64,000 bases of DNA from Eledone cirrhosa (GCA_964016885.1 OZ024742.1:248186001-248250000), one strand, 5' to 3'; positions 16,680 to 63,811 are shown, counted from the stretch's first letter. Notes: a model not told the origin generated them from the sequence alone. Numbers and translations: made by a program.

Positions 16680-17385
16680 TATCAAAATAAAGATCCGAAG
16701 GCATGGTATAAATTTCCAATCATTTTAATCACGACAAATGTTTCAATAAGAGATAGATCGTTCGTGCGGTCTAATCTTGTTTTGTAAACTAACTTTCGGT
16801 GAATACTCATTCGGTTTGTATATATATATATTTATTTTTTCTTCGACCGCGCGTCGGTGTGTTTGAGTGTGTGTGTACTCACTCACACTAACTGTGACCG
16901 ACTGTAATTCTAAAGATTTGATGTTGGGATTAGACCCGTCCAGCGTCTTTTACAGCTATTGAGAGATACAGACATGATAGTTTTATGACCCTAATTGAGG
17001 ACGATAGCAACAGGTGTGTTTTGGCTGCTTAATCTTCATATGAGGCACAAAACTCTAGTGAGTGAACATCGTTAAATTTTCTCCCTCATATCAAGGATTT
17101 GAAGACAATTCATTTTCACCTGACGAGATCAGTGATAATCGATCATGGCCGCACGATCGATCTATCTCTTATTGAAACATGTGTCGTGATTAAAATGATT
17201 GGACATTTATACCATGCCTTCGGATCTTTATTTTGATACAAATACTCCGTTTTACATCATCTAGCTGTTCCCATAAATGGAATTGGGGATATACAAAAGC
17301 GTGGAGAACTTAATATTGCTAACAAAAGTTTATTGGACCGTATTGAACAACCAATAATACACCTTACTATATAACAACTTATATA
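16680..17385 (+). mobile_element. Penelope-type fold-back module: ~90-bp inverted repeat (16680-16769 / 17149-17238) between TA tracts
   Basis: Arms are near-exact reverse complements; contains the hammerhead at 17106-17201. Confidence 0.75.
17106..17201 (+). ncRNA. Type-I hammerhead ribozyme with extended stem II
   Basis: CAATTCATTTTCAC-CTGACGA-GATCAG...CTTATT-GAAA-CATGTG-TC-GTGATTAAAATGATTG. Confidence 0.7.
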
Positions 17386-19259
17386 TATTTATTTATATAT
17401 ATTATATATATATTTACATATATATATGTATTTATATATATATATATGTATATGTATATATATATATATATGTATATATATATATATAAATATATATATA
17501 TATATATATATATATAGAGAGAGAGAGAGAGAGAGAGAGAGAGAGAGAGAGAGAGAGAGAGAGAGTGAGAGAGAGAGAGAGAGAGTGAGTGAGAGAGAGA
17601 GTGAGAGAGAGAGAAGAGAGAAAAGATGAATTCGAAAATGCAACTGGAATCTTATTTTTAAAAAATATTTATATATTTATTTGGTTCCTTTACCAGTTTC
17701 GCAGTTCTTCTGCTTTTCAAAAGTAGAGTTGAGATGGAGGGTCTGTGGTCTTTCTCACATTATATATATATATATATATATATAAATATATTGATAGATA
17801 TAGGTATGTGTATGTGGGTGTGTGTATTTATGTATTTGTGTAAATAATCACTTTCACTCTGACACGATTATTATATCCCAATGTAGTATCCTATCCTTAC
17901 TATATACATGGTAGCTTTATTTTTGACGATAAATATGCATCAGGTTTCTTTCTATTAGATATTGTGTGGTCGACGTATTACATCTCGTAGCCTATTGCAA
18001 AACATTCGTGCGGATACTATATTTCATAACCAATCTAAAAATAAAACTTGTCTTTTTGACTCATTATGAATTATAAAGGTGATACAATTTATTTTAGTTC
18101 TCTGACCCATAATATATATAACGCTAATCTTGAGAAATCACGATATAGCTTAACATGGAGCTGAGTGTATGGGTCTATACACATAATATCAATTGTTCAC
18201 TGTATATCTAAACTGTTGTCGATATTTAGTATTAAATACTCGTCATATAAAACTGTCTAAACAAATAAAATTGCCATTAGAGAGCTTATGTATCACATGA
18301 CTTAACAATTCTAAGCGGATTATATGTAATGTAAGTTTTTAAACAATATTTTTTCCTAAGGACATAAATGTAAGCATACGTCAAAAAACTTAATAATCAA
18401 AATTCCATTTCTATAAATGTTAAGAATTGTGTATAATATATAAAAGAATCAACAACAATAGAAAATATGATATATTATTATGTAAACTATTAACGTTGTT
18501 ACACGGTATTATGTAATTTTATCAGAATCTTTACAAACAACATAGCTGTCAAGATATAAAGCCTTTCTCGCTACTGATATAACAAAATATAAACGTTTGA
18601 AAACTGCAGTAAATGCAGGATTAATGTAGCCTCCATTACAAACAATGAAGTAAAGAGAGAACCACTACGTGGCAATATATGTTAACTAGAATTAACAACG
18701 CAAATCATAAATGTATTGCATGGGTAGATTTTGCTTCTGTCTTTTCGAGGTGTTGCAACTAAAGTATCAGCCCAGGGTGTTTGGTTTGGCAGAATTAGGA
18801 GAGTAGTGGAAGAGATGCTTTGTGATTTGTATCCTCGTCATTCGCGTTCTGATCTGAAATACCAGAAAGAGCGGGGATTTCCCCTGATTAGTGGCTAAGA
18901 AGATGTATTGTGGATTTGATGAAAATGAATAGGGACAATCGTTTCGGCGCAGTCCTGTTAGAGGCTTTTAAGTTGGATATGAAGGTGGAGCCGACGATGG
19001 AACAATAGGTGATGGTTTCCTGTACAATTGTTAAAGGTCGTGTAAGTGGTGAGCATAACCCGAGTGAATAGAATAACACTCAACATGCGCTAGTTTGCCT
19101 GTTGGAAATACAACTGATAAGTGTAGATATCTTTATTTTGTCAGGCTAATCCTTTATAAGTGGAGTTCCTTGAATGACCCTAGTTTGCGGGCTTCCTTCT
19201 GTAGGTATTCCCATATATTTCAGACTTATGCATCACAGGATCTATTTTGTTCAGCCGAT

Positions 19260-20434
19260 ATATTAGTATCACCCATCCACAATACGTGTAGCCAAAAACT
19301 GACATGCTCTCTTAAATGTTTCCATTGCATTAATAGTAATGGTATCTAATATTAAACACAGGGCAAGCAATGATGGGGTGGGGTGTAAAGTCGATTATAT
19401 AATTCATATTTATCTTTAGTTATCGAACCCCGAAAAAGATTAAGTAGACATCGACTGGGCGTCATCTGCGAGAAGAAGAAACAAACGCCTCAACGTATGT
19501 TACCGATTTTCTATTGATTCTACCAATCCAGCGACTTTTATTTACAACAATGATGAAATACATAAACCCCTTTTTTCCGTCCCATCATATTGATATTCCA
19601 ATACTTTGAGATATGTTTATTATCTCAATCTTGTGTCAGGAAGATAAAACAGAAAACACATCATCCTCACATACATCGAGAAAGCGAGAGAGAAAGGTGA
19701 ATAGAGAGTATTTCACTTATCAATTGGACATTCTGCTACTAAACAGACGTAGGTAATATGAAGGCCTAGGTCAGGTTGACATGTCAAAAGAAATCTACAA
19801 TCTTCAACGCGACGCTGAAGAAACATGCCAGATGATGTTAATACAAAAAAATGTGTAGGAAATATAAATTAGCTTTAGTTTTTCTGTTGTTATAATTTTA
19901 CAACATACATCAAAAGGTACGGATGTGCTTCGCTGATCAACAAATAATTATATTTTCTCTCTCGCTTATATATATTACAATCACAAAGAATAGCGTCACA
20001 TTCTGTTCCATTTATAAAGACACACTTATATACATAACATGCAGCGTTACATGCATTGGCGTCACTTACAGACTCACCTACACACATATATACATATATA
20101 CATCCAAAAGCGTACAGGCACACAGTGAAATGAGATGCGAATGCACACACATGCACAACACCTCCCAATCTATACAAATATATATATACATACATATATA
20201 TATATATATATATATATATATATATATATATATATATATATATATATATATATATACGTGTGTGAGTGTATTTGTATGTATTTGTGTAAGTATGCGTGTA
20301 CATGTGTTTCTATGTATGTATATATATATATATATATATTAGTATCACCCATTCCCGATACTTGTAACCAAAAACTGACATGCTCTCTTAAATGTTACCA
20401 TTGCATTAATAGTAATGGTATCTAATATTAAACA
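19260..20434 (+). repeat. ~97-bp dispersed direct repeat (19260-19358 and 20337-20434)
   Basis: TATTAGTATCACCCAT...CCAAAAACTGACATGCTCTCTTAAATGTT...GGTATCTAATATTAAACA present twice. Confidence 0.85.
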
Positions 20435-20914
20435 AACCGAGCATTATAATAAATGTTGGGTGAATCCATACGTACATATATATATGTGTGCATGTATGTA
20501 TATATATATACATACTACTGTACGTCTGTATACATATATGTATGTACGCATACATATATGTATGTACGCATACATACTTATATTTAAGTAGCAGCCGTAC
20601 TAAGAGTGAGAAATGAAATTTCGTTTCATTTACATATATACATTTACATATTATATATATATATATATATATATATATATATATATATATATATATATAT
20701 ATATATATATATATATATATGTAAATGGAAAAAAATGAAACGAAATTTCATTTCTCACTCTTAGTAATGCTGTTACTTAAATATAAGTATGTATGCGTAC
20801 ATACATATATGTATACAGACGTACAGTAGTATGTATATATATATACATACATGCACACATATATATATGTACGTATGGATTCACCCAACATTTATTATAA
20901 TGCTCGGTTTGTTT
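20430..20914. repeat. ~200-bp-arm palindrome centred on (TA)n
   Basis: 20430-20650 is the reverse complement of 20718-20914 apart from a short tandem duplication and a few substitutions. Confidence 0.9.
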
Positions 20915-63059: not shown

Positions 63060-63290
63060 CCACCTGGCGAAGTCTTACAAATCAGTGTTTGGGTACCATG
63101 GCCCACTCGAGCAGAGAGTTATTGTTTACGGAGGCATATCCGGGTGTAGGAGGCTTATCCGGGATTTATTGAAGGCATTTATCCAAAGACTTCTTCAACT
63201 TGATGGGGTCTGTCTCTGCTTTGATGTGTTTTGGTGTAATGTTAAAGAGTGCAGGGCCAATTGAGGTGAAATAATTGTACCGTATTGTTA
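63060..63290 (-). mobile_element. CR1-group LINE 3' fragment
   Basis: NYFTSIGPALFNITPK..KLKKSLDKCLQ*IPDKP..NNSL, similar to the C-terminus at 14900-15090. Confidence 0.7.
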
Positions 63291-63647
63291 TATTATATAG
63301 AAGTGGTTACACAACAGTTAGTTCACCATACCTAGAACAATTGTTTCACCTTAGCGGATACTCAGCTCGTAATGTATGTATCTATGTATATATATATATA
63401 TATATATATATGTCTGTGATATGTGTCGTCTAGTCCTCATACAAATGTTAATTAGTTAAACTCATATCACTATCTGAAGAGAAGTGAAAACATAGATGGG
63501 GCACTTTTGATTTATCTATAACCATAGAATCATAACAACTGTATTTAAGTTGAAAAGTTACATGAAGGACAAAACACTAGATTGAAATTGTAAACTGATT
63601 TATTATCCCTGTTAATATATATATATATATATATATATATATATATA

Positions 63648-63811
63648 TTTTATTGTATAGAAGGAGCTTCTACAGGACTAGTACTGTTTCATTCAGATGA
63701 AACAGTACTAGTCCTGTAGAAGCTCCTTCTATACAATAAAAAAAGTTTACTCTGCCATGTATTGAGTACCTTACTTACTGTGGTTATCTCCGACTCAACC
63801 CGGGACCTACG
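63648..63811 (+). mobile_element. Penelope pLTR 3' half in (TA)n with a perfect 45-bp-arm hairpin (63648-63692 / 63697-63741)
   Basis: GAAACAG-TACTAGTC-CTG-TA-GAAGCT (HHR 3' half) in both arms; tail GTATTGAGTACCTTACTTACTGTGGTTATCTCC..CCCGGG matches the pLTR at 46258-46320. Confidence 0.85.

Follow-up and report, generated by a model that had tools for sequence, protein, structure and literature searches.

How does a short sequence come to lie beside its own inverted copy, repeatedly, in TA-rich DNA? In the 64 000 nt of Eledone cirrhosa DNA analyzed here as a whole (the window), the initial annotation had noticed HHR/pLTR sequence as two inverted copies at seven sites between 16.7 and 63.8 kb, with 3′-ends facing outward into TA-rich flanks. 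We found an inverted repeat at each of the seven sites (IR1–IR7; Table 1), with arms of 44–163 bp that are 92.6–100% identical. An unbiased census of inverted repeats in the window gave 15 rows representing 12 distinct repeats, IR1–IR7 included; the same census on the shuffled window gave none in 20 of 20 shuffles. Repeats beyond the listed seven thus exist, several of them facing inward. A general repeat-pair search was dominated by TA runs among the 25 pairs listed of 1406. The seven repeats come from several families, only one of 21 arm pairs (IR1 and IR6) being related, and each family has one to four copies within the 64 kb. While the inverted repeats are real at all seven sites, the hammerhead ribozyme (HHR) is not present in all of them (see below), and the ‘pLTR’ label lacks support, as no ORF is linked to any of the seven. 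We characterized them as short ORF-less insertions, most with hammerhead motifs of Penelope type, in which two copies stand head-to-head and differ in the length of their 3′-ends, one being long and the other short. The seven loci were hand-picked for TA flanks, and the mechanistic case made below leans mostly on two of them.

Table 1. Positions of the inverted repeats, their parts and related sequences in the window (TA x/y, distance in nt of the left/right arm to a TA run)
Feature	Position	Strand	Description
IR1	16683-16769/17149-17235		arm 87 bp, spacer 379; TA 0/144
IR1 short arm	16683-16769	-	HHR 3′ half and 50 nt; 3′ end abuts (TA)7
IR1 spacer	16770-17148	.	49 nt, short TA run, then lead into right-arm HHR 5′ half
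IR1 long arm	17120-17379	+	type I HHR 17120-17185, arm to 17235, 144-nt extension to TA array
Inverted duplicate of 20733-20912	20432-20632	+	pivots on (TA)34, faces inward; absent from earlier list
Family D inverted 5′ piece	20722-20797	-	matches solo copy 27812-28022, 0/1000 shuffles
IR2	20915-20984/21152-21221		arm 70 bp, spacer 167; TA 46/11
IR2 long arm	20869-20984	-	70-nt arm and 46-nt extension to short TA run
IR2 spacer and short arm	20985-21232	+	family D, degenerate HHR 21108-21138; arm 21152-21221, 11 nt from (TA)22
IR3	21359-21408/21415-21464		arm 50 bp, spacer 6; TA 82/3
IR3 long arm	21277-21408	-	HHR 3′ half and 82-nt extension
IR3 short arm	21415-21467	+	end shared with solo copy at 5236
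IR4	24915-25076/25161-25323		arm 162 bp, spacer 84; TA 40/0
IR4 long arm	24875-25076	-	intact HHR 25062-25031; 40-nt extension to short TA run
IR4 spacer	25077-25160	.	19-nt arm-like start, then two hairpins
IR4 short arm	25161-25323	+	intact HHR 25175-25206
IR5	39691-39774/39775-39858		arm 84 bp, spacer 0; TA 60/0
IR5 with extension	39631-39858	.	perfect-apex palindrome 39691-39858 and 60-nt left extension
Third IR5 arm copy	39925-39985	.	across (TA)33; forms pair of opposite polarity
Family B second long copy	39986-40135
IR6	40576-40703/40733-40860		arm 128 bp, spacer 29; TA 5/86
IR6 short arm	40576-40703	-	intact HHR 40678-40624; 5 nt from (TA)47
IR6 long arm	40733-40946	+	intact HHR 40758-40812; 86-nt extension; distant IR1 relative
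Decayed Penelope-like ORF	44135-46207	-	Hydra-clade marks
Family B solo copy	46256-46414	-	full HHR, long 3′ end; orients IR7
Family C tail-to-tail pair	46980-47039	.	28-bp arms, 4-nt centre; 3′-ends-in by conserved end and shared motif
Inverted repeat, ∼280-bp arms	60468-61183	.	TA-rich centre; extension on inner side of one arm
Family B solo copy	61285-61349	-	ends near IR7 short end
IR7	63649-63692/63697-63740		arm 44 bp, spacer 4; TA 0/71
IR7 short arm and 4-nt apex loop	63649-63696	-	loop reads in short-arm cDNA orientation
IR7 long arm	63697-63811	+	HHR 3′ half and 71-nt tail, stops at family B terminus

The hammerhead core contains C3-G8 or U3-A8, GAAA and UH, and the type I form has a short palindromic helix III. 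This core agrees with the one given in the accessible part of PMC4209133. Since matches to Rfam were uninformative (only microRNA and other sub-threshold matches, driven by palindromes and TA runs; no hammerhead at IR4, the strongest site, and none over the whole window among the best 150 of 247 rows), we scored HHRs by our own motif scan against shuffles, testing 23 regions with 300 shuffles each and loosening the scan twice. In its final form the scan gave 12 hits with score ≥10 versus a shuffled mean of 0.2; scores below ∼7 were near chance (30 versus 13.6 at score 6). The full type I motif is present in IR1, IR4 and IR6 (0/300 shuffles each). The orientation of IR7 was taken from an aligned member of its family, B, at 46.3 kb (HHR, 0/300 shuffles); IR3 carries the HHR 3′ half only, with a relative at 5.2 kb in the same sense (3/300 shuffles). 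The HHR of IR2 is degenerate (51/300), and the motif scan found no credible HHR in IR5 (76/300). The 3′-ends-out orientation claimed for all seven therefore stands for five by hammerhead motif and is likely for IR2; IR5 has no credible HHR to orient it. Minimum free energy (MFE) folds recovered some stems, none strongly beating shuffles (z from −1.6 to +0.7), and the ribozymes are to be read as predicted. An HHR-like stretch at 39665–39694 would turn IR5 inward, but it scores no better than chance and was set aside. For family D, reading the left end as 3′ on motif grounds was given up in view of two contrary signs, a weak homology of the ends and the degenerate HHR. A MITE origin is not favoured, given the strand-specific HHRs in the arms and the asymmetric outer ends, though IR5 and repeats at 26 kb and 57 kb may be MITEs. 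The 25-nt family B motif had no match in prokaryotic genome contigs, as expected.

Defining a TA run as four or more TA units, we saw that one arm lies ≤11 nt from such a run in all seven repeats, with the other arm 40–144 nt further out; a random position falls within 10 nt of a run with frequency 0.033 and within 150 nt with frequency 0.246, the loci being pre-selected for TA flanks. Outward contact with TA-rich sequence is thus confirmed for one arm per pair but never for both (0/7). If each arm had picked its start independently, such asymmetry in 7/7 would have a chance of ≤0.0078. As to the nature of the extra 40–144 nt, alignments identify the extension as element sequence in IR7, where it aligns with the tail of each of two solo copies of family B (58/65 and 54/60), and in IR3, where it and the family B tail have a 15-mer in common without mismatch (0/400 shuffles; 120 pairs tested). 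The same probably applies to IR1 and IR6. However, the match between the extensions of these two is weak (55/2000 shuffles, 76/5000 random 30-mers), and those of IR2, IR4 and IR5 have no independent copy within the window (that of IR2 recurs only in its own local duplicate); these extensions could therefore be host flank.

The short ends recur elsewhere. The short end of IR7 coincides, within about 2 nt, with the end of the solo family B copy at 61285, that of IR3 falls at the same site as the solo copy end at 5236, and that of IR5 is the end of the third arm copy. IR1 and IR6 are distant relatives (0/1000), and their short arms stop 50 and 48 nt past the HHR cut site. Alternating TA bases are enriched in the long arm at the short-end site (sum 26 versus 15.7 from the same arms, P = 0.003), which fits insertion at a TA-run edge and rejoining at DNA level equally well. 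Arms of one repeat are closer to each other than to other copies: 44/44 versus 36/42, 28/36 and 33/43 in IR7, 48/50 versus 45/50 in IR3, and 60/61 versus 56–57/61 in IR5.

Junctions were most telling where an unrearranged copy could be compared. The apex loop of IR7 (TCAG on the plus strand) agrees with the family sequence TCGG in cDNA orientation at 3/4 positions, and at 1/4 the other way; the short arm thus owns the loop, which argues against a simple fold-back. The family of IR7 has 5–6 nt of inverted microhomology at the apex site, at a template hairpin; junction microhomology is also suggested at IR3. In the solo copy of family D, pieces a and b are contiguous; at IR2, piece a lies alongside in inverted orientation and has a 9-nt overlap with the beginning of piece b (20730–20722 versus 20985–20993), such a 9-mer being shared by 90 of 63,984 windows. 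The 20.7–21.2 kb complex has, in this respect, an inversion point of L1 type. Elsewhere the segments overlap by 44–163 nt, so that almost all of the short arm is covered. As to spacers, that of IR1 is part of the long arm, as is probably that of IR6 (9/1000; 110/2000 for the strict spacer), and in IR2 it is collinear with the short arm (end homology 16/1000, HHR weak). Loop ownership in IR3 favours the long arm in ungapped comparison (4/6 versus 1/6), and a one-base gap reverses the sign. The first 19 nt of the IR4 spacer copy arm sequence at 17/19 (4/2000 shuffles), apparently a scar of a template switch or brief fold-back.

Not all pairs in the window point outward. Inward pairs centred on TA occur at 20.4–20.9, 39.8–40.0, 47.0 and 60.5–61.2 kb, so the excess of outward pairs expected from the initial annotation is not significant here (5 versus 2, P = 0.23; 6 versus 2, P = 0.14), and another process than the staggered priming proposed below is needed for them. 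The duplication pivoting on (TA)34 (20432–20912) has arms 97.7% identical and takes in simple flanking sequence; a copy of 19263–19358 at 20339–20434 was considered as a templated insertion of the same event and rejected as too diverged (93.8% versus 97.7%). The large repeat near 61 kb is probably 3′-ends-in; its HHR is weak (3/300 shuffles), the opposite strand scoring nearly as well.

We propose, with a probability of slightly less than one half, that the palindromes formed during integration, through twin target-primed reverse transcription beginning at two start sites that are staggered along the RNA. A Penelope-like protein would nick both strands in or at a (TA)n tract. One nick would prime at the distal start on the RNA, giving the long arm with tail, and the other would prime 40–140 nt upstream, at an AU-rich proximal start, giving the short arm. 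Both cDNAs would copy one ribozyme-bearing stretch (from a single RNA with strand displacement, or from two units of a tandem RNA), halt at RNA hairpins, anneal via a few complementary bases and complete each other. An internal second start fits IR7 and IR3, with short ends 71 and 82 nt upstream of the long ends. Such chemistry has a precedent: as described in the accessible text of PMC11167929, the Penelope-like protein PAc nicks and extends both strands in vitro and is a predicted dimer, has two start sites of reverse transcription bounding the tail, and uses the same start sites on both strands with no need for homology. Priming on two strands, one element of the initial annotation, is supported by IR7 (loop orientation, microhomology) and IR2 (9-nt overlap), in agreement with the two-strand nicking and extension reported in that text; fold-back and DNA template switching are still live. 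However, because the PAc starts are alike on both strands and independent of homology, PAc alone does not predict asymmetry in 7/7. Two other elements fare less well. Self-complementarity of TA as the cause is needless for the start of reverse transcription in vitro, and the inward pairs centred on TA suit it no less than the outward ones. Where it can be tested, the idea of one shared RNA end for both primers is contradicted by element-derived one-sided extensions at IR7, IR3 and probably IR1 and IR6. That palindromes are a routine product is a fair description within this window.

Competing accounts read the same asymmetry differently. A single tailed copy in (TA)n could have been made palindromic after insertion, during replication or repair, by a nascent strand that changes template on meeting a hairpin inside the copy, is then extended backward as far as the first TA-like site and there reconnects with the TA run upstream. 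Under this account exactly one arm should be long and the other short, the short end should show TA microhomology, and the loop could have either orientation; the (TA)34-pivoted duplication is present in the window, and short-range switches are enriched near AT-rich DNA in the available sections of PMC7954356. We regard it as unlikely, since great-ape switch tracts in the same sections are short (median 12, maximum 128 nt, against arms of 44–163 here) and it predicts neither the coincidence of short ends with solo-copy ends in three families, nor the homologous sites in IR1 and IR6, nor the split of contiguous pieces at IR2; moreover, the census contains a single inverted pair of SINEs, and there each copy is flanked by direct repeats of its own, indicating two insertions. 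Self-priming, in which a cDNA (or antisense RNA, as Arkhipova and colleagues have it) folds at a hairpin and is copied toward its own beginning, with joining or cutting taking place short of the tail, accounts for the 7/7 asymmetry, the very small loops at the apex (IR5, 0 nt; IR7, 4 nt; IR3, 6 nt), the long-arm spacers of IR1 and probably IR6, the scar in IR4 and a SINE head palindrome at 25333–25385; it is also the published proposal for head-to-head repeats (PMC3846280, in its accessible part). It needs the longer arm to own the loop, a rule broken by IR7 and probably by IR2, which leaves it rather unlikely. An inter-strand DNA template switch can also invert a loop, a point that counts against twin priming.

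Were both nicks to prime on the same RNA end, the extensions being host flank or the result of later loss of one tail, the outer ends of both arms would by definition fall at a single coordinate of the element; for IR2, IR4 and IR5 the window offers no support for an element origin of the extensions, start sites alike on both strands are reported in the accessible text of PMC11167929, and dual priming has been proposed for L1 (PMC2837659). Yet in 0/7 repeats do TA runs adjoin both ends, the extensions of IR7 and IR3 are element-derived, and independent loss of exactly one tail in all seven would again have a chance of ≤0.0078; we consider this improbable. Two independent opposite insertions of one family into one TA tract, as seen for the SINE pair at 2384–2724, may explain the third IR5 copy, and the IR1 spacer does contain a TA run. 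As a general account this is very improbable, given the mutual closeness of the arms, TA-free apex spacers of 0–6 nt in three cases and the rarity of the families. Finally, fold-back chimeras of the library or assembly, which the identical IR7 arms might suggest, are scarcely credible: between the arms, 601 matches stand against 24 substitutions (15 transitions and 9 transversions) and one gap, and the inversions halt at element-specific sites, never continuing into flanks.

Is there a possible source of the staggered priming enzyme nearby? A tblastn search with 40 homologues of one clade gave a single match in the window, the decayed ORF at 44135–46207. It has a C-terminal GIY-YIG, DKT, a CxCX5C linker and no CCHH, is under 3 kb, and has a garbled RWK; by these predicted motifs it fits the Hydra clade as described in the accessible text of PMC8557442. 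Of 11 ORFs in the window, three gave a Pfam match to RT or zf-RVT; Pfam found no domain in the four Penelope-like pieces of the window and a weak GIY-YIG in one of five homologues. No arm of IR1–IR7 matches the ends of this element; it is possibly the kind of driver that could have produced the palindromes.

Architecture, TA targeting and tail are already published for Penelope-like elements. In the accessible parts of PMC3846280 and PMC8557442, EN+ elements have inverted 5′-truncated pLTR copies, most frequently head-to-head, with a tail at one end and junction palindromes, and (TA)n is the target of the Hydra and Naiad clades; these features are shared by the repeats described here, which differ in having no ORF between or beside the arms and extensions of 40–144 nt instead of the published 30–40 nt. 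These parts explain inverted pLTRs by self-priming on an antisense template or EN-mediated resolution, not by twin priming, and PMC8557442 describes as undefined how these elements come to form tandem and inverted structures. PMC4209133 notes the U3-A8 core and also pairs of HHRs that lie 100–700 bp apart on opposite strands. PAc, from Anolis Poseidon, resembles the present case in two-strand nicking and extension, AT-rich target and two internal starts downstream of the HHR bounding the tail; it is of another clade, its starts are alike on both strands and not homology-driven, and the accessible text of PMC11167929 has no inverted-repeat model. Non-LTR retrozymes (PMC7229834; 10.64898/2026.07.22.740005) are likewise short repeats that have a type I HHR, lack an ORF and are associated with Penelope-like elements; they are defined by head-to-tail tandems, in contrast to our head-to-head palindromes. 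An array at 42.0–43.9 kb fits the retrozyme description.

The original paper on L1 twin priming reportedly dates from 2001. That process shares with our proposal the 3′-out geometry, a distal and an internal primer, joining of cDNAs by microcomplementarity and an overlap like that of IR2; its internal duplications have a median of 22 bp and occur in 17% of inversions (10.1101/2024.08.27.596794), whereas nearly the whole short arm is duplicated here, with no poly(A), no TSD readable in the (TA)n flanks and a different enzyme. L1 dual priming, where both nicks prime at the RNA 3′ end and the cDNAs join centrally, is the model of the initial annotation; proposed and not validated in PMC2837659, it predicts matching outer ends, absent here where testable. 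Our literature search found twin and dual priming published for L1 and no paper applying either to Penelope-like elements.

One could speculate further, more doubtfully than for this window, that Penelope-like elements routinely integrate by coordinated twin priming, with a dimeric reverse transcriptase using distal and proximal starts, both cDNAs copying the ribozyme region and joining at hairpins. If so, a single mechanism would give three features that have until now had separate explanations or none: the inverted pLTR, the tail on one side and the palindrome at the junction. Two cheap discriminators can be scaled to genomes, namely the arm to which the apex loop belongs and the agreement, or lack of it, between the ends of short arms and those of solo copies. 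Should twin priming prove right, the inverted pLTR and tail would be tied to two-strand, two-start chemistry seen in vitro, and Penelope-like elements would have a route to seed many hairpins in TA-rich genomes.

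Inverted repeats were present at all seven sites reported in the initial annotation (IR1-IR7); others, omitted there, are added in the table. In a census with arms of at least 25 bp we obtained 15 rows, merged into 12 loci, and none in 20 of 20 shuffles. Arm-to-arm comparison of the seven repeats, pooled, gave 601 matches, 15 transitions, 9 transversions and 1 gap; since these substitutions and the gap follow the pattern of ageing DNA, fold-back chimeras of reads, which the initial annotation had named as fatal to its claim, are disfavoured. Just one of 21 arm pairs was related (IR1-IR6), thus the layout recurs across families.

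Inverted repeats, array and open reading frame in the window
Feature	Position	Strand	Remarks
IR1	16.7-17.2 kb		
IR2	20.9-21.2 kb		
IR3	21.4 kb		
IR4	24.9-25.3 kb		
IR5	39.7-39.9 kb		
IR6	40.6-40.9 kb		
IR7	63.6-63.8 kb		family B
Large inverted repeat	60468-61183		TA-rich centre; extension on inner side of one arm
Inverted pair	46980-47039		family C
Inverted duplicate	20432-20912		TA-pivoted
Unoriented inverted repeat	26447-26640		
Unoriented inverted repeat	57926-58073		
Head-to-tail array	42005-43852	minus	3 x 591 nt + 75 nt, between TA runs
Decayed Penelope-like ORF	44135-46207	minus	one in window; broken by frameshifts and a stop

Several neighbouring structures were seen as well. Two oppositely oriented SINE copies occupy one site (2370-2740), each with its own direct repeat, hence this inverted repeat is two independent insertions. 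A palindrome at a SINE head (25333-25385) resembles a short 5′ fold-back, and a 96-nt direct copy (20339-20434 versus 19263-19358, ∼1.1 kb apart, 93.8%) joins the 20.4 kb inverted duplicate via a shared 5-nt stretch.

Rfam did not detect even the strongest hammerhead site, therefore 23 regions were scored by our own motif scan with shuffles. The proposed outward direction of 3′ ends held for five repeats: IR4 and IR6, with an intact hammerhead in each arm (0/300 shuffles each); IR1, with one extending into the right arm (0/300); IR3, with the 3′ half only; and IR7, whose family has the full motif at 46384-46346 (0/300). The IR2 motif was weak (51/300), and the scan gave no credible hammerhead in IR5 (76/300); with a third copy across (TA)33, IR5 contributes to two pairs, of which one is outward and the other inward regardless of its own orientation. 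The large repeat has a weak inward-pointing motif (3/300; score 6.1 versus 5.6 on the other strand), the family C pair is inward as judged by conserved end and shared motif, and the same scan found no credible hammerhead in the two unoriented repeats. Among oriented pairs of this window the excess of outward over inward, 5 or 6 versus 2, was not significant (P=0.23 or 0.14). Solo U3-A8 hammerheads were seen at 47552-47515 (minus), 17720-17691 (minus) and 41.8 kb (plus), with 0, 0 and 20 of 300 shuffles, the latter two being relatives; a hammerhead-like long-stem fold (4413-4483, minus; one core mismatch, score 10.5) lies ∼190 nt from a TA run.

In all seven repeats the distance to a TA run was 0-11 nt for one arm and 40-144 nt for the other. 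The two unoriented repeats were likewise lopsided (distances to TA of 64/0 and 68/11 nt); in the large repeat the two outer ends stop at one shared position and abut long TA runs. The asymmetry is the one-sided tail already described for Penelope-like elements (PMC3846280; PMC8557442); in vitro, with PAc, an Anolis Poseidon Penelope-like protein, this tail is flanked by two RT start sites (PMC11167929). The IR7 extension is the family B tail, present in two solo copies, and the IR3 extension has an exact 15-mer in common with it; the IR1 and IR6 extensions are weakly alike over the first ∼20 nt (55/2000 shuffles). Extensions of IR2, IR4 and IR5 have no independent copy within the window, and so may be host flank.

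Positions of short ends are non-random. In family B the short end coincides with the end of a solo copy at 61285, in the IR3 family with one at 5236 and for IR5 with one at 39925; in IR1 and IR6 the short ends fall 50 and 48 nt past predicted cut sites. At short-end sites of long arms alternating TA bases numbered 26, versus 15.7 elsewhere in the same arms (P=0.003), which fits several models. Three families have in common a short 3′ motif with GTAC at its end (46310, 40037, 63756, 21336, 47025, 41063): in family B and the IR3 family it is located 36-38 nt past the cut site, and in family C it is the terminus itself. This motif is a candidate RT recognition signal.

Array units differ at 4-5 of 591 positions, each having a U3-A8 hammerhead (0/300 shuffles). 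The 5′ end of the array is 1 nt past a predicted cut site and the 3′ end 77 nt past the last one; these positions suggest a ribozyme-cut linear multimer as the template. For PAc in vitro, no role of cleavage was found (PMC11167929).

The window is AT-rich, with 207 TA runs of at least four units; it contains a tRNA-type SINE family, presumably octopus-like in appearance, and LINE fragments, and RT or zf-RVT was found in 3 of 11 ORFs scanned. The decayed ORF has DKT and the CxCX5C linker and lacks CCHH, the marks of the Hydra clade, for which PMC8557442 also reports hammerheads and (TA)n as an almost invariable insertion target. A family B copy lies directly upstream of this ORF, across a short TA stretch; old tandem arrays occupy 51338-51987 and 13319-13785 (units of roughly 170 and 89 nt).

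As the best reading, at a probability of about 0.48, we consider twin target-primed reverse transcription with staggered start sites. What the sequence shows is the seven repeats with five of them oriented, their asymmetry, the element origin of two tails, the recurrence of short ends, the loop of IR7 and the overlap at IR2. The case for the mechanism depends mostly on two of the seven loci, all picked by hand. PAc, predicted to dimerize, has two RT starts and in vitro nicks and extends both strands (PMC11167929). Twin priming, as in the initial annotation, stays a reasonable best reading, with two different start sites rather than one: priming of both nicks on the same RNA end (dual priming, PMC2837659) is contradicted by the long/short asymmetry where testable, and is improbable. 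In a solo copy (27812-28022) two IR2 pieces are contiguous (0/500 and 0/1000 shuffles); at the IR2 locus the first piece is inverted (20797-20722) with a 9-nt overlap with the start of the second. IR2 may be read as an L1-type inversion point on tandem RNA, so its arms would be copies of two tandem units.

Fold-back or antisense self-priming (compare PMC3846280) requires the loop-owning arm to be the longer one. Long-arm spacers in IR1, and probably IR6, agree with this and count against two-strand priming (IR3 is ambiguous, IR5 has no loop). However, the plus-strand IR7 loop, TCAG, matches family TCGG in cDNA orientation at 3/4 positions, versus 1/4 for the other strand, so the loop is the short arm's, and self-priming is improbable. 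Family sequence at the loop point has 5-6 nt inverted microhomology. Annealing of two antisense strands would explain the loop; an inter-strand switch in DNA would do so too, and post-insertion template switching (compare PMC7954356) is the least unlikely alternative, slightly ahead of self-priming. The IR4 spacer begins with a 17/19 copy of arm sequence (4/2000 shuffles), a sign of a brief switch. Independent insertion of the arms is very improbable; an artefact, with arm substitutions matching ageing DNA, is hardly credible. Inward TA-centred pairs require another process, and there the self-complementarity of TA plausibly plays a part; for L1, inverted duplications with priming through TA/AT homology have been reported (10.1101/2024.12.14.628481).

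Head-to-head architecture, tail and TA targeting (PMC3846280; PMC8557442) and the pairing of hammerheads on opposite strands at a distance of 100-700 bp (PMC4209133) are already published, as are twin and dual priming for L1. Our literature search, covering few subscription papers, found neither a publication applying twin priming to Penelope-like elements nor another model. We regard the observation as confirmed in part and the interpretation as supported in part. If timing, coordination and driver are as we infer, two coordinated starts on Penelope-like RNA at integration would yield one long and one short arm.
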